A stretch of 64,000 bases of DNA from Bacteroidales bacterium (GCA_031253655.1 JAIRVY010000148.1:2121-66120); one strand, 5' to 3'; shown: positions 3,122 to 60,104, counted from the stretch's first letter. The notes: generated from the sequence alone by a model not told the origin. A program made the numbers and translations.

Positions 3122-3769
3122 ATGACTAATTCAATTTTAAGTTTATTTACCCCCAAAGAGCCTAAGTTTTGTGCGTTATTAAAACAAATGGCAGAGGTTT
3201 CTGCCGAAGCTGCCATTTTATTACTTGATTGCGTGAAAAATGTTGACTATGAAAAAGTAGTTGAGATTGCAAAACAGATTAAAGTGTATGAGAAGAAAGG
3301 CGATAATACTTTAATTACAATCTTCGATGAATTAAATTCAACTTTTATCACCCCTTTCGACAGAGAAGATATTCACGATTTGGCAAATCGTTTGGATGAT
3401 GTGATGGACTTTATTAACAGTTGCGCAAAAAAGATAATGTTATTTCGACCCAAACATTTGCCCGAAAGTGCTTTGAAATTAGCCCAATTGATAGATAATG
3501 CATCCGATATTGTTCTAAATGCCATAACACAATTGTCGAATATCAAAAAAAATGCAAAAAATATTAGCCGGTTGGTTAATGAATTACATGATATTGAAAA
3601 CAATGCCGATGAGGTTTATGAAGAATTTTTAAGTGATCTGTTTGCAAACGAGAAAGATAGTATTGAAGTTGTTAAATTGAAAGATATATTGCATGAACTT
3701 GAAAAAGCCACTGATGCAACCGAAGATGTGGGAAAAATAATAAAAACAATCATTGTAAAATACGCATAA
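3122..3769 (+). CDS. DUF47 / PhoU-like phosphate transport regulator (PiT accessory protein)
   Basis: 215 aa helical protein with FITPFDREDIHDL and a DATEDVG...IVKYA tail, typical of the DUF47 family. Its stop lies 3 nt before the PiT start. Confidence 0.85.
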   Translation: MTNSILSLFTPKEPKFCALLKQMAEVSAEAAILLLDCVKNVDYEKVVEIAKQIKVYEKKGDNTLITIFDELNSTFITPFDREDIHDLANRLDDVMDFINSCAKKIMLFRPKHLPESALKLAQLIDNASDIVLNAITQLSNIKKNAKNISRLVNELHDIENNADEVYEEFLSDLFANEKDSIEVVKLKDILHELEKATDATEDVGKIIKTIIVKYA

Positions 3770-15858: not shown

Positions 15859-17199
15859 TTAAAACTTAAACTGCATCCTGCATGTGAAAACACCTTCTTC
15901 TACATGTCTTTGATAATTGGCAACATGAATTTTTCCGGAAGATGGTTTTTCAGGAACGGGAATAGCATTTTTTGTAGAATTGAAAGGCAACTCGTAAAAA
16001 CAGAGTAAATGTAAGTAAGATGTAAATTTCACAAGAAATCCTGCGCCAAAGTAGTGATAAGGTAAATCTACCATGTTTGTGATGTTACTACCATTTAGTT
16101 GTGTATTTGGATTCAAAAAAGCATATTTTAATACGAAAGTAAGAGGCGTTTTGTATATATCCTGTACAAAATAAGTGTGTAAGCCCCAAAATTTACGAAG
16201 ATAATTAAATGGTGTATCTCCAAATTGCATAAATCCGGATTTAGGCGAACTAAAGTCATTTTCTGTAGAGGGTTGTGTTCCAAACAATACCTCACTGCGC
16301 AAGTTTGTAATTCCCCATGAAGTTTGAACTGAGAAGTTCGCGTCTAAACCATAGTATTGTCGAATATTTTTTTGAAAATTGGGAACATTTTCTCCAACCC
16401 ATTTTTTTTCCTGTGAGGCAACTCGTTTAACTTCATAAATCACAGAATCAGTGTTTCTTACTGTTCCATAATACATAGAAGCACCTATACCAAAAGTATA
16501 GTTTTTCCATTTTTTATTGTATTTCAACTGCCCAATAAAGTCCATTTTTCCGTTGTCGGGTAATGTAATTCCGTTTCCGCAGAAGGTGCCGGCTTCCAAT
16601 TTAAGTCCGTCCGGTTTTGAGCCTTTTGGCGAGGCAAGCGTTATCATAGCACCTAGATCTCTTTCATCAGGGAACAGTTTTTGGAATAAAACAGTTCTCT
16701 CGGGACTTTCCCTGCGGGAGGAGGAGTAGGAAATTTCGTCTCCAAAAGGCCGGTTAAAGATGCCTACAGTTAATGATGCCACCTTAAATCTTGACTCAGC
16801 TACTTTGAAATAGAGGTCTTTAATTATGATTCCTTTTTCGGTTAGGTCTAACTGAAAAGTTGCATTATACCAGTTTTCTTCATAAGAAATCTTGATGCGT
16901 CCTCGTCTAATACCAAAACGAAAAAAATCTCCTGATTTCCCATCTCTATCTTTATGATACGACGTTGATTTTCCTACTTTTGTTGTTGTAAACTCCTGCC
17001 CTACTTCAAATTGTCCTTGAATGTAGCCGGAAATCTTTAACTTTTGAAGTTTCTTAATTTGGATAAGGTTCTTATCTACGTCTTCTTTTATTTGGGATAA
17101 TTCTACCCTTAAAGAAATTGTGTCGGTTTGGGCAGAAAGAGGTTGAAAGCAGAAGAGCAGAAAAGCAGAAAGGCAAAAAGGCAAAAACTTAAAGTTCAT
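15859..17199 (-). CDS. Outer-membrane beta-barrel porin (porin O/P-like)
   Basis: Signal peptide, N-terminal coiled-coil segment, alternating beta-strand pattern, C-terminal ...RMQFKF. Confidence 0.5.
   Translation of the reverse strand: MNFKFLPFCLSAFLLFCFQPLSAQTDTISLRVELSQIKEDVDKNLIQIKKLQKLKISGYIQGQFEVGQEFTTTKVGKSTSYHKDRDGKSGDFFRFGIRRGRIKISYEENWYNATFQLDLTEKGIIIKDLYFKVAESRFKVASLTVGIFNRPFGDEISYSSSRRESPERTVLFQKLFPDERDLGAMITLASPKGSKPDGLKLEAGTFCGNGITLPDNGKMDFIGQLKYNKKWKNYTFGIGASMYYGTVRNTDSVIYEVKRVASQEKKWVGENVPNFQKNIRQYYGLDANFSVQTSWGITNLRSEVLFGTQPSTENDFSSPKSGFMQFGDTPFNYLRKFWGLHTYFVQDIYKTPLTFVLKYAFLNPNTQLNGSNITNMVDLPYHYFGAGFLVKFTSYLHLLCFYELPFNSTKNAIPVPEKPSSGKIHVANYQRHVEEGVFTCRMQFKF
17132..17188. 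repeat. Imperfect octamer tandem array GCAGAAAN, encoding the porin signal peptide on the - strand
   Basis: Five consecutive 8-mers at 17149-17188 (gcagaaga gcagaaaa gcagaaag gcaaaaag gcaaaaac), plus gcagaaag at 17132-17139. Confidence 0.8.
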
Positions 17200-18833: not shown

Positions 18834-19251
18834 ACTTACATTAATTTATTGATTATTATTATATTAAAGTTAATTATTAAGTTAAAAAAAAAGTTTGCGA
18901 ATATTCATAAATTATTCGAATAACGGATAGTTTTCAAAAATAAATATTTCAATTGCATTTAATAATGTTTCCCCATTAATTCTAAACTCCCTTGAAACTC
19001 TCGCCCTTTTAATTGATTTTTCATTTTTTACAATTTTCGATTTTCAGAATAGAAACCAATTATGGATAGTTGTACAACCATACGTGTTAACAATGAGTGG
19101 ATTAAAGTAATAAAGCCGTGAATAAGATTGTTTATTGCAGAGAGATTGTTATCTCAAATAAATGAATTTGTACCATAAAAACGTGTGTTATGTTATTTGA
19201 AAAACATTTTTTGAATTATTACGTTTATTAATCTGAAATAATATAATATTG

Positions 19252-20283
19252 ATGATTTTGTTTAAACAACGTGTTGCTTTTCTATTAGTTTTTCTCATTC
19301 TGACTTCTTCAGCAATGTTTGGGCAAGATGAGCATTACTCGCAGTTTTACGCCAATCCTGTCTATTTGAATCCCGCTTTTACAGGAACGGCAAATTGTCC
19401 CCGTTTTACATTGAATTTCAGAGATCAGTGGCCCTCTATACCCGGCAATTTTATCAATTGTTCAGGAAGTTACGACCAATTTATCCATCTTATTTCCAGT
19501 GGAATTGGTGTATTGTTTTCTGCAGATATAGAAGGGGGCGGAATATTACAAACCTACCAGGCAAATGCCATCTACAGTTTCAGAGTGCAAGCCGCAGAAA
19601 AATTGAACTTTCAATTTGCTTTGCAGGGAGGTTTTCTGGGCGCTTCATTGAACTGGAGCAAGCTTCAAACTGCCTCTGATTTGCTGAATACCTGGGCGCA
19701 GAATGACTTTCCGCAAGAGATGGAAAACGGACTTGCAAAATCGCAGTTTGATGCGGCATTCGGTTGGATGGGATATACTCCTTATCTCTATTTTGGCATG
19801 GCTATTCATCATTTACTCCCCTTAGAAAAAAGTTTTATTGGACATTTTTCAAACTTCATTAATTCAAAATGGAGCCCCAGATGGACAGCGCACCTTGGAG
19901 GAAAGATTACCTTTAAACAAAAAATAAGAAATAAGGAAAGTTTTGGTGACTTTTTTCTGTATCCCAATATTATTTTTATCAGTCAGGAGAATTTTCATTA
20001 CCTGCACGAAGGGGCCTACTTTAAAATTTACCCGTTTACTATTGGGACATGGATCCGGCACAACTTTAAGAATTTAGATGCTTTTATTTTTTCTTGCGGC
20101 TTGGAATATAATAATTTCCGTTTTGGCTATTCTTACGATTTCAACCTAACCGCGCTGGAACGTACCGGCGGGGCGCACGAGGTTTCCATACAGTATATTA
20201 TTCCCTGCAGCAATGAATTAAGTAATAAGGCACAACAGAAAAAGAAGTTCAGAAACGCAACTTTAGATTGCCCGTGCTATTAG
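19252..20283 (+). CDS. PorP/SprF-family T9SS membrane protein
   Basis: DEHYSQFYANPVYLNPAFTG N-terminal signature; beta-barrel-like sequence. Confidence 0.8.
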   Translation: MILFKQRVAFLLVFLILTSSAMFGQDEHYSQFYANPVYLNPAFTGTANCPRFTLNFRDQWPSIPGNFINCSGSYDQFIHLISSGIGVLFSADIEGGGILQTYQANAIYSFRVQAAEKLNFQFALQGGFLGASLNWSKLQTASDLLNTWAQNDFPQEMENGLAKSQFDAAFGWMGYTPYLYFGMAIHHLLPLEKSFIGHFSNFINSKWSPRWTAHLGGKITFKQKIRNKESFGDFFLYPNIIFISQENFHYLHEGAYFKIYPFTIGTWIRHNFKNLDAFIFSCGLEYNNFRFGYSYDFNLTALERTGGAHEVSIQYIIPCSNELSNKAQQKKKFRNATLDCPCY

Positions 20284-20356
20284 AAAAGAAGAATGTTTTA
20301 CATTTTTTATAATAAAAAATCAATTGCTTCGTTACAAAATATAAATTTTTAAGAAA

Positions 20357-21847
20357 ATGAGAGAATCATCAACAACATTGTGGCTAATTATTATTGCATT
20401 ATGTACTTTTTGGGCATGTAAAAACAACCAACAATCTTCCACTACCGGATGGAAATACAATAATCCCAAACAGGGCGGATTTGAGGTAACTCCCTATATA
20501 GAGCAAGCCACTGGTCCAGGGTTGGTGCTCATCCCCGGCGGCACATTTACTATGGGAAATATGGATCAGGACGTAATGTTCGATTACACCAACATTCCAC
20601 ATAAAGTTTCCATTGCTCCTTTTTATATGGATGAATGCGAAGTAAGTAATCTTGACTATCTGGAATATCTGAACTGGCTGAAAATAGTATTTGTAGATAT
20701 AAAAGAAGGGTTAGAAGGGGTTTACGAAAGAGCACTACCGGATGTTAAAAGTTGGAGGCGTCCTGCTGCTTTTATGGAAGATTGGGTTGAAAACTACTTC
20801 CGCTCGCCCGCATATCGCTATTATCCTGTAATTGGCGTGAGTTGGATTCAAGCCACGCAGTACGCAGAATGGCGCTCCGATCGCGTGAATGAAAAAATAT
20901 TAGCCGATTTGAAACTGGTAGAATGGACTCAAAAACCATCACCTTCGGGACACTTTACTACGGATGCTTACTTGAACTATGAAACCTACGAAATGCAAAG
21001 CGATAAAAGGATGCAATATATAACCACGGGAGATTACCGAAATGTTACTATGGAAGATGGAATACTATTACCCAAATACCGACTACCCACCGAAGCAGAA
21101 TGGGAATATGCCGCACTGGGATTGGTAGGAAATTCTGATGGGGAACAAGTACTTGAAAGATATACGTATCCATGGAACAATAAATCATTACGCTCGGACA
21201 GTAAAGGTAGTTTAGGAAAATTCCAAATGAACTTTAAAAGAGGAAAAGGCGATTATTCAGGCGTGGCTACTATGCCCAACCCCGGAAACATCTTTACTGC
21301 AGACGTAAGAAAAGATATTCCGAACGACTTTGGTTTGTACCACATGGCAGGAAATGTTGCCGAGTGGGTATTGGATGTGTATCGTCCTAGTGGAACTTCA
21401 GAACTTTCTCAATATAACCCATTTAGGGGCAATGTATATATGGAGAAAAAGAGAAATCCCGATGGAACGCTCATGGAAAGAGACAGTATCGGTCGTATTC
21501 CTACGATTATGGAAAGCGATGCAGCAAATGAAAGAAGAAGCAACTACAGGTCTTCCTATAATGTTAACTATAGAGATGGTGATTTACAATCGCTTATCAG
21601 TACAGATGTTGCTAACGCCGACCCCATAAATACTACCGAATATATGTATCGAAAAAATTTGAATACAGCTTATTCCTATTCATTAATAGGAGATAATGTG
21701 AGAGTTATTAAAGGAGGCTCTTGGGCAGATATCCCTTACTGGGCGCAACCCGGAAATAGAAGATTTCTATCAGAAGATGAATCTGCCGACTGGATAGGGT
21801 TTCGTTGTGCAATGTCGCGGCTCGGAGATATTAACTATAAAAAGTAA
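20357..21847 (+). CDS. gldJ: GldJ-like gliding/T9SS lipoprotein (SUMF1/FGE-fold)
   Basis: Lipobox (FWAC), then TGWKYNNPKQGGFEV...GPGLVLIPGGTFTMG...FYMDECEVSN and C-terminal GGSW...GFRC. The gldJ-murF adjacency is as I recall it in Flavobacteriia. Confidence 0.7.
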   Translation: MRESSTTLWLIIIALCTFWACKNNQQSSTTGWKYNNPKQGGFEVTPYIEQATGPGLVLIPGGTFTMGNMDQDVMFDYTNIPHKVSIAPFYMDECEVSNLDYLEYLNWLKIVFVDIKEGLEGVYERALPDVKSWRRPAAFMEDWVENYFRSPAYRYYPVIGVSWIQATQYAEWRSDRVNEKILADLKLVEWTQKPSPSGHFTTDAYLNYETYEMQSDKRMQYITTGDYRNVTMEDGILLPKYRLPTEAEWEYAALGLVGNSDGEQVLERYTYPWNNKSLRSDSKGSLGKFQMNFKRGKGDYSGVATMPNPGNIFTADVRKDIPNDFGLYHMAGNVAEWVLDVYRPSGTSELSQYNPFRGNVYMEKKRNPDGTLMERDSIGRIPTIMESDAANERRSNYRSSYNVNYRDGDLQSLISTDVANADPINTTEYMYRKNLNTAYSYSLIGDNVRVIKGGSWADIPYWAQPGNRRFLSEDESADWIGFRCAMSRLGDINYKK

Positions 21848-21858
21848 TACACTTATCT

Positions 21859-23223
21859 GTGTTTCAAGAACTTAACAATATAGGGGAATTGTACAAACTG
21901 TTTGTGCAATTCCCTTTTGTTTCTACAGATACGAGAAATATAATTCCCAATTCTTTGTTTTTTTGTTTAAAAGGTGAAAAATTTGATGGGAATCAGTTTG
22001 TTGTCGAAGCACTTGAAAAGGGGGCGAGGTACGTAGTAACAGAAAGGAGATTTGAGATGGAAGATTTGCGATTTGAAATGAAAGATTTGAGAAAATTAGA
22101 ACCATCTGATATCGCAAAATCTCATATCGCTTATCGCATTATAGTGGTGGATGATGTGTTGGAGACGCTTCAGCAGTTAGCGGCGTATCATCGCAGGCAG
22201 TTGAAAACTCCAGTGATTGGAATTACTGGAAGCAACGGAAAAACAACTACAAAAGAACTGATAGCCGCAGTTTTATCCAAAAAGTATAAAACTACTTTTA
22301 CACAAGGCAATCTTAACAACCATATTGGCGTACCGCTTACCCTATTATCTACAAAAAAGGATGACGAAATTGCCGTAATAGAGCTGGGAGCAAACCACAC
22401 CGGAGAAATTGAAGAACTCTGCAAAATTGCCCAACCCGATTATGGAATTATTACCAACATTGGAAAAGCGCATTTGGAAGGTTTTGGTACTATTGAAAAT
22501 ATTATTGAAACAAAAACAGCCCTCTACCGCGCAGCCCCTATTCTGTTTGTAAATGCCGAAGATGAACTGCTGACTCATTTTATTAGCCGCCGGTTTCAAC
22601 CGGCGGAACATATAAGACGGGATGGTTTATTTTATTACGGAAAAAATACCGAATATAATGCTGAAATTGTGGAGATGAATCCCTGTTTGGTTATCAATTT
22701 GTTTGGAAATAAAATTCAAACCCAACTACCCGGCAACTACAACCTCCCCAACATTTTGGGAGCGACAGCTATTGGAGATTATTTTGGCATTTCAACACAA
22801 GATATTTGCGATGCTATCGCAGAATATAAACCCCAAAATCAGCGTTCACAGATTATTAAAACCACAAACAATACGATAATTGCCGATTACTACAATGCCA
22901 ACCCCACCAGTATGCAGGCAGCGTTGAACAATTTTATACAAATTGAAACACCCAAAAGATTGGCAATTCTCGGCGATATGCTGGAATTGGGCGAAAACAG
23001 TAAAATAGAGCATAAAAATGTGGTCAATTTTTGTAAAAATAATAGCATCGAAACCCTATTTATCGGTAGTGTATTTCATTCTCTAAAAGAGGAACATTTT
23101 CATTTCTTTATGAACGTTGAGGAATGTAATTATTACTTAAAAAGTCACAGTATTAAAGACAGTTTTATTTTGATTAAAGGCTCTCGCGGAATTCATTTGG
23201 AGGAAATAATATTATCTCTATAG
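21859..23223 (+). CDS. murF: UDP-N-acetylmuramoyl-tripeptide--D-alanyl-D-alanine ligase
   Basis: STDTRNI, GITGSNGKTTTKE P-loop, Mur ligase middle and C domains. Apparent GTG start. Contains a repeat-derived insertion at 22049-22140. Confidence 0.9.
   Translation: MFQELNNIGELYKLFVQFPFVSTDTRNIIPNSLFFCLKGEKFDGNQFVVEALEKGARYVVTERRFEMEDLRFEMKDLRKLEPSDIAKSHIAYRIIVVDDVLETLQQLAAYHRRQLKTPVIGITGSNGKTTTKELIAAVLSKKYKTTFTQGNLNNHIGVPLTLLSTKKDDEIAVIELGANHTGEIEELCKIAQPDYGIITNIGKAHLEGFGTIENIIETKTALYRAAPILFVNAEDELLTHFISRRFQPAEHIRRDGLFYYGKNTEYNAEIVEMNPCLVINLFGNKIQTQLPGNYNLPNILGATAIGDYFGISTQDICDAIAEYKPQNQRSQIIKTTNNTIIADYYNANPTSMQAALNNFIQIETPKRLAILGDMLELGENSKIEHKNVVNFCKNNSIETLFIGSVFHSLKEEHFHFFMNVEECNYYLKSHSIKDSFILIKGSRGIHLEEIILSL
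22049..22097. repeat. Imperfect heptamer tandem array (GATTTGA family) inside murF
   Basis: gatttga gatggaa gatttgc gatttga aatgaaa gatttga gaaaatt. Translated as RFEMEDLRFEMKDLRK (7-aa period). Confidence 0.8.
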
Positions 23224-36859: not shown

Positions 36860-39160
36860 ATGAGAAAAAAACTCCCTTCTCCTTTATACTTTCTCCTTTT
36901 TGCTTTCTTCTTTCTCCCCTTTTCCTCTTTCTCGCAAACCTACAATGAAGACGACAAAGAGGGCTTGCGTATCTTTCTGCGACAACCCTCCGTAATTGCG
37001 GGCGATATTAATGCACAAAGATTAGGACTGCAAATAAGCGATACAATAAATTGGATGATGGATGAATTGTGGGTAGCTAAAGTTACTGCACTTACTTGGA
37101 ACAGTGATATACCTAAACGATTGATAGAAATATACGGTAATAATATGGGATGGGATTACAAAGGGCTTGCAGGCTACTTAGATTGTAGTTTGTGGACTTA
37201 TTTGACAAGGATGCGTTGCACTGCGAATAATTTGACAACCCTGATAGCTAACAACAACACCGCATTAACACATTTGTACTTCCGATTTAACAAGCTTACA
37301 TGCATTAATGTAAGCAATTGCCCTGCCTTGGAAGTATTGTGGTGTAGTTCCAATCAATTAACAACACTCAATATTTATAACTGCCCGGCTCTAAAGTCTC
37401 TATGGTTTGAAAAAAATTTATTAACAACACTTAATGTTAACAATTGCACAGAATTGAATTGGGTAGATTGTAAAAATAATCAATTTATCATTCTTGATGT
37501 TGGCAATATTCCGGCTTTATCGCATTTAGAATGTAGTAGTAATTTTTTATCTTCCATAAACCTTAATGCAAGTTCTGCCTTATCCTACTTGGAAATCAAC
37601 AATAACCTTTTAACAACCATTGATATTAGCAATAATAGTTTATTATCAGAGTTACATATTAATAACAATCAAATTACGCATCTTGCCCCACATTCCGAAT
37701 CTTTAGCACATTTGGAATGTAGAAACAACAATCTTGTTTCTCTTGATGTAAATAACAGCCCAAACTTACTGCATTTAGATTGCAGAAACAACAACCTAAA
37801 CTCTATTGAATTAAGTAATAATAGTAAGTTACAGCAACTCTATTGCGAAAACAACGAACTAACCTCCCTTGATATAAGTAATAGTAAAAACCTGCAAGAA
37901 CTGTATTGTGATAATAACGAATTAACCGCGCTTAATGTAAGCAATGCTACAAAATTAGAAGAGTTACTATGTAAAAACAACCAACTCACCACGCTCGATG
38001 TAACCGATTGTCATGCCTTAACCCATTTAGATTGCAGAAACAACAGTTTAGCTTCTATTTCCAACATTCATAATAAAAACAACTTAAAAAAACTGATTTG
38101 CGACAACAATCAATTAACTACCCTTGATGTGAGCAACTGCACTAAATTGGAAGAGTTGTCGTGCGTAAACAACCAATTAACCTCTCTTGATGTAGCAAAA
38201 TGTAAATCTATTGTTCATATCGATTGTAGAGATAATCGGTTAAACTCCTTGGATATCAGTAGCGTTGGAGGAACTTATCTGTTGCACGCCTTGTGGTGTA
38301 GTTATAATCAAATGTTTTTTTCGGGCATTCCTCCCACCATCCCTTATCCGTGGGAGTATGTGTATTGGCCCCAAAATACCATAGAGGGCGGCAAAATTGA
38401 TTATGATACCGGCATTGATCTCAGTAAAGAATACTTGGTGGAAGGCAATTATACCCACTTCTCGTGGTTTGATATTACCAACGAGGAAGAACAGCCGATA
38501 GAACTACCGAATGACTACGGCTTTTTCTCACTTACAGAAGAACATATTGGAAAACGCCTGCGCTGCAAAATGCACAACGCCACTTTTCCATGGCTAACCG
38601 GCAATAATATTTTGGTGTATGAGGTAACAATAAAACAGTTTTGTGAAGCGGTGAACAATCTTGAGGCGGAGAAACACCCTTATAATTCTATTCTACTTAC
38701 ATGGAGCAAACCCGAAAGCAATTTTACGGTAGCCGGATACAGCGTTTATAGAAATGAACAATTATTAAATAATGAATTATCGTCTATCTGTTCTTCCTTA
38801 GATGAAAATTTACCTGATGGGAATTATGATTACTATGTAGAAACACATTACACAAACGGTTGTATTTCAGAAAAATCGAATATTGTTACCGTAACAGTTG
38901 GGGTTGGAATAGAATCAATTAAGAATTACGAATTACGAATTACGGTGTACCCGAATCCAACTACCGGTCAATTGAAAATTGACAATGGACAATTAACAAT
39001 TGAAAAAGTGGAAATTTACGATATTTACGGTAGAAAAGTTCTTGAACCACCTCTTACGGTCTTACGGTCTTACGATCTTACGGTCTTACACCACGGTATC
39101 TACTTTATAAAAATAACAACAGAAAAAGGAACAATTACCAAAAAAATGATTAAACAATGA
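36860..39160 (+). CDS. Leucine-rich-repeat surface protein with Fn3-like domain and T9SS C-terminal domain
   Basis: About 16 LRR units (NN.LT.LD..N...L..L.C); C-terminal VYPNPTTGQL...YDIYGRKV...GIYFIKI...KKMIKQ. Confidence 0.8.
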   Translation: MRKKLPSPLYFLLFAFFFLPFSSFSQTYNEDDKEGLRIFLRQPSVIAGDINAQRLGLQISDTINWMMDELWVAKVTALTWNSDIPKRLIEIYGNNMGWDYKGLAGYLDCSLWTYLTRMRCTANNLTTLIANNNTALTHLYFRFNKLTCINVSNCPALEVLWCSSNQLTTLNIYNCPALKSLWFEKNLLTTLNVNNCTELNWVDCKNNQFIILDVGNIPALSHLECSSNFLSSINLNASSALSYLEINNNLLTTIDISNNSLLSELHINNNQITHLAPHSESLAHLECRNNNLVSLDVNNSPNLLHLDCRNNNLNSIELSNNSKLQQLYCENNELTSLDISNSKNLQELYCDNNELTALNVSNATKLEELLCKNNQLTTLDVTDCHALTHLDCRNNSLASISNIHNKNNLKKLICDNNQLTTLDVSNCTKLEELSCVNNQLTSLDVAKCKSIVHIDCRDNRLNSLDISSVGGTYLLHALWCSYNQMFFSGIPPTIPYPWEYVYWPQNTIEGGKIDYDTGIDLSKEYLVEGNYTHFSWFDITNEEEQPIELPNDYGFFSLTEEHIGKRLRCKMHNATFPWLTGNNILVYEVTIKQFCEAVNNLEAEKHPYNSILLTWSKPESNFTVAGYSVYRNEQLLNNELSSICSSLDENLPDGNYDYYVETHYTNGCISEKSNIVTVTVGVGIESIKNYELRITVYPNPTTGQLKIDNGQLTIEKVEIYDIYGRKVLEPPLTVLRSYDLTVLHHGIYFIKITTEKGTITKKMIKQ
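36877..36932. repeat. Pyrimidine-rich heptamer-periodic tract (TTCTCCT family) encoding the LRR protein signal peptide
   Basis: ttctcct ttatact ttctcct ttttgct ttcttct ttctccc cttttcc tctttct, read in a 7-nt phase. Confidence 0.7.
38917..38944. repeat. Heptamer tandem array AATTACG x4 (first copy AATTAAG) just upstream of the T9SS tail
   Basis: aattaag aattacg aattacg aattacg, encoding IKNYELRIT directly before VYPNPT. Confidence 0.85.
39052..39091. repeat. Octamer tandem array TCTTACGG x5 inside the T9SS tail
   Basis: tcttacgg tcttacgg tcttacga tcttacgg tcttacac, encoding LTVLRSYDLTVLH. Confidence 0.85.
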
Positions 39161-48176: not shown

Positions 48177-48641
48177 ATGAAACAAACTCTTACCCTTTTA
48201 TTATGGCTTTGCCTACCGTTTCTTAGCTTAGCCCAAAATCCACTAACTCGCGTGTACGAGTACGATGCAGCAGGCAATCGTGTTGTGCGAAAATTAATTA
48301 CATTAAAGGTACCCTCTACGCCGGCGGAAGATTCGGTGGAAGTTACAAGTGACGAGTTACTAGTTACGAGTTACATTTATTTTGTTGAAAAACTTGCCCA
48401 ACTTGAAATGAAAATCAACCCCAACCCATCTACTGAAAAGATTACGCTTTCTATTATCAATATGAATAAATTGCAAAGCGGACTACTGCAATTGTACTCT
48501 ATGAATGGACAGTTGCTTCAAACCCAACCCATCCATTCTGCTACAAGTGAAATTTCATTGGTAGGCTTTGTCACAGGCTCATATATCTTAAAAGTACAAA
48601 TAAATGATACCATCGAAAATTGGAAAATTATTAAACAATAA
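48177..48641 (+). CDS. Small secreted protein: YD-repeat fragment plus T9SS C-terminal domain
   Basis: Signal peptide (LSLAQ), YEYDAAGNRVVRK (YD/RHS repeat), heptamer-encoded linker, then KINPNPSTEKITLSI...YSMNGQLL...GSYILKVQ...KIIKQ. Confidence 0.6.
   Translation: MKQTLTLLLWLCLPFLSLAQNPLTRVYEYDAAGNRVVRKLITLKVPSTPAEDSVEVTSDELLVTSYIYFVEKLAQLEMKINPNPSTEKITLSIINMNKLQSGLLQLYSMNGQLLQTQPIHSATSEISLVGFVTGSYILKVQINDTIENWKIIKQ
48341..48375. repeat. Heptamer tandem array AGTTACN x5
   Basis: agttaca agtgacg agttact agttacg agttaca, encoding VTSDELLVTSY between the YD fragment and the T9SS tail. Confidence 0.85.
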
Positions 48642-50749: not shown

Positions 50750-51673
50750 TTACAAGGCAAAATCATCTAACCGTTTCTTTAGTCCCTCATATTTAAGTTT
50801 ATAGATGGTAGTTTCTTTAAAATAGTGTTCAAAAAAATCGGGGGTTAAGTTTGCTAAAACTTCTTCCTGCTTCCCAACAAACGAAGGGCGTAACAAAATT
50901 GCCTTCTCATTAACGGGGGCATCTGCGTTGTTTGGGCAAACATTTTGACATTCATCGCAGCCAATTAGCCAGCCATATTTAGCTATTTTAGTAAAGTTAG
51001 TTTCATTTTTATTTAAGTTAATATTAGAAATACAAAGATTACTATCCACTTGATATGGGGCAACAATGGCCTTTGTAGGACAAACAGCGATACACTGTCT
51101 GCAACTACCGCAGCTACCGAGATTAGGATTATCATAAATATCAACTTCTGCATTTATTAACAGACACCCCAAATAGACAAAAGAGCCGAATTTTGTCTGA
51201 ATTATACCGTTTTTCCCATAATAGCCTATTCCTGCCTGCACCGCCCACGCTTTTTCCGAAATAACCGAGGAATCTACTGTAATCCTATAATTAACCAATC
51301 CATATTTTTCTTGCAAACTACACGCCAAATCTTCCAACTTTTCTTTCATAAAAATGTGATAGTCTTTAATTTGTGCATATTGCGAAATTTGAGATTTGAA
51401 ATTTGAGATTTGAGATTTGAGTTGTAGAAATTGGGTGTTGTAATTATAACCACAAACAATTACCGATTTACAGTGTGCCAATAACAATTCAGGGTGAAAC
51501 CTTTTATCAATATCTCGTTCCAAAAATTCTTTATTGGCGTGCAAATTTTGAGCTATTGCTTTTTCAAAACGCTCTTTTTCAACAGGTAAAGGTTTTGCTT
51601 TGGTAATGCCACATAAGGCGAAACCTTGTTTTCGAGCTTCTTCTTTAATAAAATCTGAATTAATCCGTATCAT
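50750..51673 (-). CDS. queG: Epoxyqueuosine reductase
   Basis: CGSCRQCIAVCP and CDECQNVCP ferredoxin motifs; cobalamin-domain-like N-terminal half. Carries a heptamer-array insertion. Confidence 0.85.
   Translation of the reverse strand: MIRINSDFIKEEARKQGFALCGITKAKPLPVEKERFEKAIAQNLHANKEFLERDIDKRFHPELLLAHCKSVIVCGYNYNTQFLQLKSQISNFKSQISQYAQIKDYHIFMKEKLEDLACSLQEKYGLVNYRITVDSSVISEKAWAVQAGIGYYGKNGIIQTKFGSFVYLGCLLINAEVDIYDNPNLGSCGSCRQCIAVCPTKAIVAPYQVDSNLCISNINLNKNETNFTKIAKYGWLIGCDECQNVCPNNADAPVNEKAILLRPSFVGKQEEVLANLTPDFFEHYFKETTIYKLKYEGLKKRLDDFAL
51386..51420. repeat. Heptamer tandem array (A/G)ATTTGA x5 inside queG
   Basis: aatttga gatttga aatttga gatttga gatttga on the + strand, encoding KSQISNFKSQIS on the - strand. 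Confidence 0.85.
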
Positions 51674-59623: not shown

Positions 59624-60004
59624 TCATTTCCGTTGGCACGCTTTCGGCACTACACAAGTACCGGAAGCGCGGCATACCACCACAGGTGCTGCTAATACAT
59701 CGGCGGCAGAAGCGCTGATATCGGGGCGGGGCACAATTACTTTTTTAGCTTCAAACACCATTTTCCTAGAGCTGTTTCCCACGTGGGTAATCACCCCGGA
59801 GGCTTCAATATAATCGCCGGCATAAACAGGTGCTAAAAATTCCACGTTATCATAAGCGCAGAAAAGACCCTCGTCTCCGTCTTGCATTATTAGCAATTCG
59901 GTGGCAACATCGCCAAAAAGTTGCAACATTTTCGCGCCATCTACTAAATTTCCGCCATAATGGGCATCCGCGGAACTCATTCTCAATCGAATTAAAGATT
60001 TCAT
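59624..60004 (-). CDS. Hot-dog-fold protein resembling 3-aminobutyryl-CoA ammonia-lyase (Kal)
   Basis: [57 protein letters not shown] matches my recollection of Kal from the lysine fermentation pathway. Confidence 0.5.
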
Positions 60005-60050: not shown

Positions 60051-60104
60051 GGTTTGAAAAGTTTGAACAGTTTGAATAGTTTGAGGAGTTTGAATTGTTT
60101 GTAT
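60051..60104. repeat. Nonamer tandem array (AGTTTGAAN x6, imperfect) in the spacer between the CoA-transferase and Kal-like genes
   Basis: ggtttgaaa agtttgaac agtttgaat agtttgagg agtttgaat tgtttgtat. Confidence 0.85.

Follow-up and report, generated by a model that had tools for sequence, protein, structure and literature searches.

Tandem repeats of seven nucleotides occur in scattered bacteria, where heptamers are reported as the commonest class of long simple sequence repeats (SSRs, with units of 5–11 nt) and slippage has been proposed to generate them, according to those results of Mrazek, Guo & Shah (2007) that are relayed in later papers (PMC4679880, PMC4692102). As of 2015, heptamer repeats had been the subject of little detailed work and were described mainly from non-coding DNA (PMC4679880, PMC4692102). 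One of them, TAACTGA, is arrayed, as a rule right before start codons, in Beggiatoaceae, Cyanobacteria and five Bacteroidetes (MacGregor 2015, PMC4679880), and the asymmetry in stop codons between the two strands of this repeat has been pointed out (PMC4679880). The array studied here lies in a 64,000-nt stretch of DNA from a Bacteroidales bacterium (GCA_031253655.1 JAIRVY010000148.1:2121-66120; hereafter "the window"), within queG, the gene for tRNA epoxyqueuosine reductase, and a second gene of the window, murF, carries an array of the same heptamer. We propose that the queG array is a coding heptanucleotide microsatellite (unit TCAAATC) housed in a permissive loop of the QueG protein and resized by slippage, a reading to which we assign a probability of roughly three in four.

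The heptamer array of queG

On the + strand, positions 51386–51420 read AATTTGA GATTTGA AATTTGA GATTTGA GATTTGA. A pattern search places exact copies of RATTTGA at 51386, 51393, 51400, 51407 and 51414, all in one phase, and Tandem Repeats Finder (TRF) reports a period of 7 with 5.0 copies (92% matches, score 63, span 51387–51421). Together with the open reading frame (ORF), these searches bear out the initial annotation, which had described five phased copies read on the minus strand within queG. The five units are identical at 33 of 35 positions, and the local period-7 score of the array, 20, exceeds the best scores of 100 Markov shuffles of the 64 kb (mean 8.6, maximum 16), so that the array is an SSR in the usual sense of head-to-tail units of 5–11 nt beyond chance. 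The heptamer is not enriched as a word, with 52 occurrences in the window against 59 expected, and the unusual part is therefore its tandem arrangement only. GC skew is flat across the window. A scan of viral contigs for (CTCAAAT)x4 gave 13 unrelated matches, including giant-virus bins, which indicates only that CTCAAAT forms microsatellites elsewhere too.

The host ORF (50750–51673, minus strand) is intact and codes for 307 aa; its translation includes ...NYNTQFLQLKSQISNFKSQISQYAQIKDYH... and ...VIVCGYNYNTQFLQLKSQISNFKSQISQYAQIKDYH..., and it is 100% identical to NCBI entry MDR0207199.1 ('MAG: Bacteroidales bacterium'). Pfam recognises in it the domains DUF1730 (PF08331, 4.5e-17) and Fer4_16, the double 4Fe-4S domain (PF13484, 2.5e-16), and it matches PDB entries 5d08 (E = 3.8e-31) and 5d6s (9e-29), the solved enzymes of Bacillus subtilis and Streptococcus thermophilus. 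On the strength of these similarities, we regard the ORF as a bona fide QueG. Like the whole clade to which it belongs, it does not have the HEAT-like extension found at the C-terminus of B. subtilis QueG, whose PDB chain has 437 residues; the alignment with the window protein stops near residue 280.

On the coding strand, the five well-preserved units have the form TCAAATY and encode LKSQISNFKSQI. On their 5' side lie two decayed units (51421–51434, minus strand; CCAATTT and CTACAAC on the coding strand), recognisable when the array is phased from its 3' end and compared with the orthologous loci L013–L016. With the decayed copies included, the array counts seven units, as in L013 and L062, and encodes LQLKSQISNFKSQI. 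The variable segment as a whole (51386–51439, minus strand; aa 79–96, NTQFLQLKSQISNFKSQI), a hot spot for 7/8-nt arrays in other lineages, measures 54 nt, that is, seven units plus 5 nt, and for this reason the frame is intact although five units of 7 nt add up to 35 nt and do not fill whole codons.

This segment forms the loop between two conserved anchors: the beta-strand VIVCGYNY (51440–51463, minus strand; aa 71–78) on the 5' side and SQYAQIKDYH (51356–51385, minus strand; aa 97–106), from the ISxYAxxxDYH motif, on the 3' side. The last heptamer unit provides the conserved I of this motif. The array was initially placed between the N-terminal region and the catalytic body of the enzyme, a location that has to be corrected, since it lies inside the DUF1730/cobalamin domain (Pfam match at residues 58–135). 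An AlphaFold2 (AF2) model, which we used solely to judge whether the loop has predicted structure, shows a beta-strand at residues 70–77 before the loop and a helix starting at the conserved DYH after it. Residues 79–103 have predicted local distance difference test (pLDDT) values below 50 and are devoid of secondary structure, in a model that is poor as a whole (mean pLDDT 61); judged from this prediction, the loop is probably unstructured.

An insertion in a loop had initially been suggested. The loop is variable, and measured against B. subtilis QueG it has gained no length on balance. Residues 11–250 of the window protein align to residues 40–279 of the B. subtilis chain with a single gap, and the B. 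subtilis loop (MKDAPRSTRTERRGIFC) is of equal length and unrelated sequence. An insertion relative to all QueGs was rejected on account of this equally long loop. Compared with the shortest members of the clade and with other Bacteroidota, the window loop is about 5–10 aa longer; other Bacteroidota and more distant QueGs have 9–20 non-repetitive residues at this place, and orthologs free of repeats encode residues other than those of the array. Across QueGs the loop shows no conservation, and its length spans 9 to about 50 aa. The array occupies, in frame, a permissive loop of a conserved protein, and the peptide that it encodes is most likely a passenger without a catalytic role.

Turnover of arrays in the queG loop

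A protein search retrieved ~70 orthologs with 57–81% identity, nearly all metagenomic; the source samples may be termite-gut metagenomes. The alignment of these orthologs is conserved throughout except for the loop segment, whose length varies between about 8 and about 50 residues and in which periodic peptides of 7 or 8 residues and of very different composition abound; ISNLKSQ, NPKPQTP, QKSRKAEE, GEGRKEK and RYEVCGE, all found at this loop, are chemically unrelated. We compared the DNA of 54 orthologous queG loci, which a metagenome scan with an alignment had yielded, the segment being cut between the codons for FNY(N) and ISQYA. A clear tandem array of 7 nt, sometimes 8 nt, is present in at least 29 of the 54. 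All segment lengths are multiples of 3, and the 5' boundary of the arrays is fixed, directly after AAT AT(G) or AAC A(CT). About ten different units are represented. The unit is CTCAAAT in the clade of the window and, elsewhere, GCAGAAGA or CAGAAAAG; ACCCCAA and ACACGTT; GGAGAAG or AGAAAGG; GAGGTGG; TATGAGG, TGCGGTG, GGTAAGA or TATGCGG; GAGAATG; ATGCAGA; GCGGTAT; and AAAGGAGA or AAGGGGCG. A contig scan with a single QueG protein found only distant relatives (28–36% identity), none of them with arrays. In a neighbour-joining tree built from the flanking QueG protein sequence, the carriers of CTCAAAT (the window and L013–L016) are monophyletic and their sister groups have other units, which implies that unit families are inherited and yet turn over.

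Two side observations concern the same gene. The queG leader (20–80 nt before the start) has 7/8-nt arrays of various units in ten loci (L035, L039, L040, L043, L046, L048, L049, L055, L057 and L063); the queG of the window has no such leader because it overlaps coaBC by 4 nt. In L050, L039, L026 and L033, short perfect hairpins, for instance GGGCGTAACGTGTTACGCCC and GGCGAAAAATTTTTCGCC, replace or adjoin the arrays of the loop.

Related genomes differ in copy number at this orthologous site. Within the CTCAAAT clade, L016 has 4 units, L013, L062 and the window have 7 and L014 has 13, which corresponds to steps of three units; L015 has 6, one of them enlarged by one base (TCAAAATC), which restores the frame. 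The units of L013–L016 are 93–100% identical to their consensus, whereas third codon positions in the 150 nt on each side are 66–88% identical in the same genomes. Being more uniform than these neighbouring neutral sites, the units are homogenised at a higher rate than that of neutral divergence, as in concerted evolution. From this comparison of sequences, we read homogenisation as a signature of slippage or unequal exchange that is incompatible with selection on the peptide, since the latter would at most keep a 21-nt period and leave synonymous sites free. A 7-nt period lies below the codon level, each unit being read in three frames, and peptide selection cannot explain it. The initial annotation had favoured a process acting on DNA and not on a peptide motif, and the 7-nt period, the unrelated units of the orthologs and the contrast between uniform units and diverged flanks all agree with that view, as do the different residues of the repeat-free orthologs and the presence of arrays beyond these two genes. 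Of the two processes it had put forward, slippage is well supported, and the insertion of a dispersed repeat only indirectly so, by the units common to different sites.

The murF hot spot and units common to unrelated sites

The murF gene (21859–23223, + strand; UDP-MurNAc-pentapeptide synthetase) is recognised by the Pfam domains Mur_ligase, Mur_ligase_M and Mur_ligase_C and by ortholog alignment. On the coding strand, its first array (22047–22095, + strand) counts seven GAGATTT-type units in phase (GATTTGA register), with a higher-order period of 21 nt and exact GATTTGA copies at 22049, 22070 and 22084 in a single 7-nt phase. After a short spacer (22096–22107, + strand) comes a second array (22108–22142, + strand) of GCATATC-type units, which other lineages have in reverse complement, as GATATGC. 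GATTTGA is on the chromosomal + strand in both genes, so the same heptamer does occur in queG and murF in opposite orientations relative to transcription, as had been noticed initially. The hot spot sits between YVVTE and IIVVDDVL, where ordinary MurF orthologs have nine residues (NKxLPKSDA) and where, in many MurFs of the clade, inserts with heptad-like periodicity reach lengths of up to about 50 residues; MurF length in the clade is 410–504 aa.

The DNA of this site was compared for eight orthologs. On the coding strand, L092, L093, L095 and L096 have a composite of a GATATGM/GGTATGC array, a short spacer and an AAATCTC array, and the window, like its 82%-identical relative L094, has a GAGATTT array, a spacer and a GCATATC array. 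When reverse-complemented, the composite of the window corresponds exactly, unit by unit, to that of the other lineages. Against L092 and L096, the reverse-complement alignments of the window composite score 49–66 and the forward alignments 23–31, with shuffles scoring at most 26. The composite is also quasi-palindromic (GAGATAT vs GAGATTT). The inversion may have taken place on the spot or by re-insertion.

The murF site of L097 contains, at 3165–3190, a perfect hairpin, CCCCTTCAA-TTT-TTGAAGGGG, encoding YPLQFLKGCP, which is found in six MurF proteins; QueG loops with PLFLKGT (L018, L019 and L064) resemble this peptide. A pattern search for the hairpin in the 112 fetched loci gave one occurrence, in the locus already known, and hence no evidence for a high-copy palindromic element. 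In L112, the murF of P0127 has a separate second array site (2687–2714; (AAAGCACG)x3.5).

Units recur between sites. CTCAAAT, TATGCGG-type and GGAGAAG-type arrays occur at both the queG and the murF sites, in different lineages, and the two repertoires have three exact units in common, against about 0.1 expected. The TCTTACGG octamer array of the window (39052–39089) is 36/37 identical to the array at the murF site of L111, including a variant third copy. In the related loci, among non-adjacent arrays on one contig, 3 of 47 pairs have an identical unit, versus 0.0011 for composition-matched random heptamers. The same unit is thus arrayed at unrelated sites, both for GATTTGA/TCAAATC in the queG and murF of the window and for TCTTACGG, GGAGAAG, GCAGAAA and TATGCGG. 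A search for the exact TCTTACG array pattern among the fetched loci found only loci already known.

Translation leaves its mark on these arrays. TCAAATC is free of stop codons in all frames and GATTTGA has TGA in every frame, so that three perfect copies of the latter are always fatal on the coding strand. In murF, the units that would put TGA in frame have ATGGAA or ATGAAA in place of ATTTGA, and GATTTGA owes its survival there solely to mutations that have removed each TGA lying in frame; a similar patch, AAT TGA to AAT GGA, is seen in a CAATTGA array at 38969–39003. Purine-rich units give charged loops in queG and murF (GEGRKEK, QKSRKAEE), and their complements give hydrophobic signal peptides (CTCCTTT, TTTCTGC). 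Such reading of both strands is expected if arrays arise or arrive at the DNA level regardless of coding, and survive only where one of the two translations fits.

Several other arrays lie in the window. A CTCCTTT array (36872–36926, + strand), whose reverse complement belongs to the GGAGAAA family, is read as the hydrophobic signal peptide of an LRR/T9SS protein (leucine-rich repeat, LRR; type IX secretion system, T9SS). The same protein has three further arrays in or before its T9SS C-terminal domain (38917–39089, + strand): AATTACG x4, CAATTGA x5 and TCTTACGG x4.8. This C-terminal sorting domain, a secretion signal, therefore tolerates repeat-encoded segments; in L059 (2434–2553), the orthologous LRR gene retains the last two T9SS-domain arrays (CAATTGA and TCTTACGG). 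A second protein with a T9SS tail contains AGTTACG x4.9 (48341–48375, + strand), one base off AATTACG. An 8-nt array (17146–17187, minus strand; AAAGCAGA-like on the + strand, TTTCTGC-like on the coding one) encodes the signal peptide FCLSAFLLFCF of the ORF at 15859–17199. The only long array of the window whose period is a multiple of three is non-coding: a 9-nt array (GTTTGAATA x5.6, with an 18-nt higher order) at 60052–60101, in the intergenic region upstream of ORF 59624–60004 (minus strand).

The window and the clade loci together amount to 474 kb, in which 53 arrays of period 7 and 17 of period 8 reach at least 3.5 copies, with at most 6 for each other period; for comparison, 503 kb from the surroundings of distant queG genes hold 12 period-7 and 4 period-8 arrays. 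Counting 7/8-nt arrays of at least 3 copies, 61 lie outside the queG loop in the 474 kb, within ORFs and in intergenic DNA, so that the phenomenon is not confined to queG and murF. The surroundings of murF are conserved, with the order PorP/SprF, FGE-sulfatase-domain (formylglycine-generating-enzyme type) protein, murF, beside a C25 (gingipain-like) peptidase, in the window (19249–23223), L092–L097, L111 and L112; two M6 peptidases, a C25 peptidase and TamB are likewise encoded in the window, a region rich in T9SS cargo.

Origin of the arrays and comparison with known repeats

In the 64 kb of this genome and about 0.5 Mb of related contigs that the analysis covered, arrays of 7/8 nt are by far the dominant repeat class of an uncultured Bacteroidales/Lentimicrobiaceae-like clade and occupy tolerant sequence: enzyme loops, signal peptides, linkers, C-terminal sorting domains and 5' leaders. 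Gain, loss and homogenisation of units, apparent from the comparison of relatives, would proceed most simply via replication slippage or unequal exchange. In coding DNA, the states seen are limited to frame-preserving ones, either steps of three units (21 nt, 7 aa) or an odd step together with a 1-nt indel, and stop codons filter which of the strands is readable. The units may not all have been born on site, and we infer a small pool common to unrelated sites and genomes, spread via copy-paste for which ectopic gene conversion, templated break repair or a minimal mobile repeat are candidate routes. We consider it an even bet that such a pool exists, implying some copy-paste between sites. That a dedicated mechanism stands behind this copying is doubtful, and we are just as tentative about its strongest form, an active and sequence-specific copy-paste that seeds arrays of a few 7–8-nt units, whichever way round, in any DNA and even in essential genes, with selection pruning only frame and stops; besides templated break repair and a minimal mobile repeat, a reverse-transcriptase- or primase-like activity could achieve it.

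Several points weigh against the slippage-driven microsatellite and the shared pool as we present them. Slippage is read from comparison, and every assembled allele is in frame. The window array may be less active than those of its relatives, as its two degenerate units and two C-to-T variants suggest. The AF2 model of QueG is weak overall. Some queG units are only 1–2 substitutions apart (AATCTCA, AATCCCA, AACCCCA, AATCCGA), which fits gradual change in place with nothing imported. At murF, quasi-palindromy makes the forward alignment of L093 score almost as high as the reverse one. Finally, unit sharing may be inflated by base composition, by the need for stop-free and soluble translations and by orthologous sites in the pair count.

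Some of these points suit a purely local origin, in which every array would arise by duplication in place and slippage, with no dispersal, and unit reuse would be coincidence or convergence on stop-free, soluble peptides. The mutational series at queG (AATCTCA, AATCCCA, AACCCCA; ATGCAGA, GCAGAAG, GCAGAAGA) is largely consistent with the tree, the 5' boundary is fixed, the first unit taking in the ATG or ACT at the end of the conserved codons, and low-complexity purine-rich units could recur by chance. We nevertheless find it unlikely that local events account for everything, given the exact units that the queG and murF repertoires have in common, the murF composite in both orientations, whose two units match 7/7 only after reverse complementation, and the nearly identical TCTTACGG arrays, with their common internal variant, in unrelated genes of different genomes. 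The both-way composite and its quasi-palindromy lend themselves in turn to a discrete selfish mobile element, similar to a Rickettsia palindromic element or a miniature inverted-repeat transposable element (MITE), inserted in frame and leaving the arrays as its body or footprint. In-frame insertions in surface loops of housekeeping enzymes and perfect hairpins at both sites (CCCCTTCAA-TTT-TTGAAGGGG in L097 murF, GGGCGTAAC..GTTACGCCC in L050 queG and GGCGAAAAATTTTTCGCC in L039) also speak for such an element. It is quite improbable all the same, because the queG array is a number of 7-mers abutting conserved codons, without inverted-repeat termini, recognisable target duplication or constant length, because copy number varies continuously among relatives, and because no transposase or constant element boundary was found and the murF hairpin occurs once in 112 loci.

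A further reading is an adaptive contingency (phase-variation) locus, where the change of one unit would reversibly switch off QueG and thereby the final reaction of queuosine synthesis. Because 7 is not divisible by 3, gaining or losing a single unit always shifts the frame; off-frame steps have evidently happened in L015, with its 6 units and compensating 1-nt insertion, and queG is dispensable in model bacteria. All six of the six assembled CTCAAAT alleles are in frame, in consensus assemblies that cannot show minority alleles; murF, which has a like array, is essential, and an off state there would be lethal. The hosts, queG and essential murF, are not surface or restriction-modification genes, arrays are also found in the signal peptides and 5' leaders of many genes with no functional theme, and an array of five units that includes two variants is a poor substrate for slippage, so that we see a very slim chance for phase variation. 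A need for the peptide itself is hardly conceivable. QueG would then require LKSQISN heptads, with hydrophobic residues at positions a and d, as a short amphipathic helix or coiled coil; L and I do alternate at 3/4 spacing in LKSQISNFKSQIS, and the last unit overlaps the conserved I of ISxYA. Against this, the loops of orthologs are Pro-rich, Lys/Glu-rich, Cys-rich or free of repeats over a range of about 8 to about 50 aa, the period is 7 and not 21 nt with synonymous positions frozen, and AF2 predicts, with low confidence, no helix there. Selection for a coiled coil or at the peptide level was rejected on the diversity of ortholog loops.

One would expect non-triplet repeats to be eliminated from coding DNA, above all in housekeeping or essential genes, and the present lineage tolerates them. 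Its arrays persist across about 20–40% protein divergence, switch unit families and are shaped by frame and stop filters. They offer a natural system to study how mutation writes new peptide into enzyme loops, linkers and signal peptides, why 7 nt is preferred as a bacterial slippage unit and whether short arrays spread between sites. On the practical side, array loops point to places in QueG and MurF where insertions are tolerated, and arrays call for caution in gene calling and in alignment-based phylogeny of metagenome-derived genomes. If true, copy-paste seeding would represent a new class of ultra-small bacterial mobile repeat and would keep supplying new sequence to loops, linkers and signal peptides.

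How do these arrays compare with known systems? The coding-repeat contingency loci, of which the CTCTT repeats of Neisseria opa are an example (for background, see PMC3315296), occur in surface or restriction-modification genes and have on and off alleles. The queG array is like them in having a non-triplet unit within an ORF, where slippage by a single unit shifts the frame, and unlike them in its housekeeping hosts and in the exclusively in-frame alleles seen. The palindromic elements that Ogata et al. reportedly described from Rickettsia in 2000 are said to be palindromic units of 100–150 bp and fixed length. There too, a repeat of non-coding type is translated in frame at permissive surface sites and leaves housekeeping proteins intact; however, theirs is a fixed-length palindrome, and the queG array has a variable number of 7-mers without a palindrome, only the murF composite being quasi-palindromic.

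Heptamer repeats provide two further comparisons. With the short tandemly repeated repetitive (STRR) sequences of cyanobacteria and with TAACTGA, our arrays have in common a few favoured heptamers at many sites, start-proximal arrays (here upstream of queG in many loci) and the restriction that the stop-codon content of one strand imposes on gene overlap. The units are different, many families coexist here and they are frequent in ORFs, including those of essential genes; the five Bacteroidetes with TAACTGA (PMC4679880) are taxa other than the present clade. With long SSRs (Mrazek 2007, as relayed in later papers), they have in common head-to-tail 7-nt units beyond chance, the dominance of heptamers, a sporadic phylogenetic distribution and slippage as the proposed driver, whereas those repeats, as described so far, are mostly intergenic, units that are not multiples of 3 being reported to be avoided in coding DNA, and the queG and murF arrays are in frame. 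They differ further in their housekeeping-enzyme hosts, in their presence in the same loop across a whole clade and in their many unit families. As far as sequence comparison can tell, our case fits the known bacterial heptamer repeats, and what is new is their clade-wide occurrence, in frame and with many unit families, in homologous loops of enzymes.

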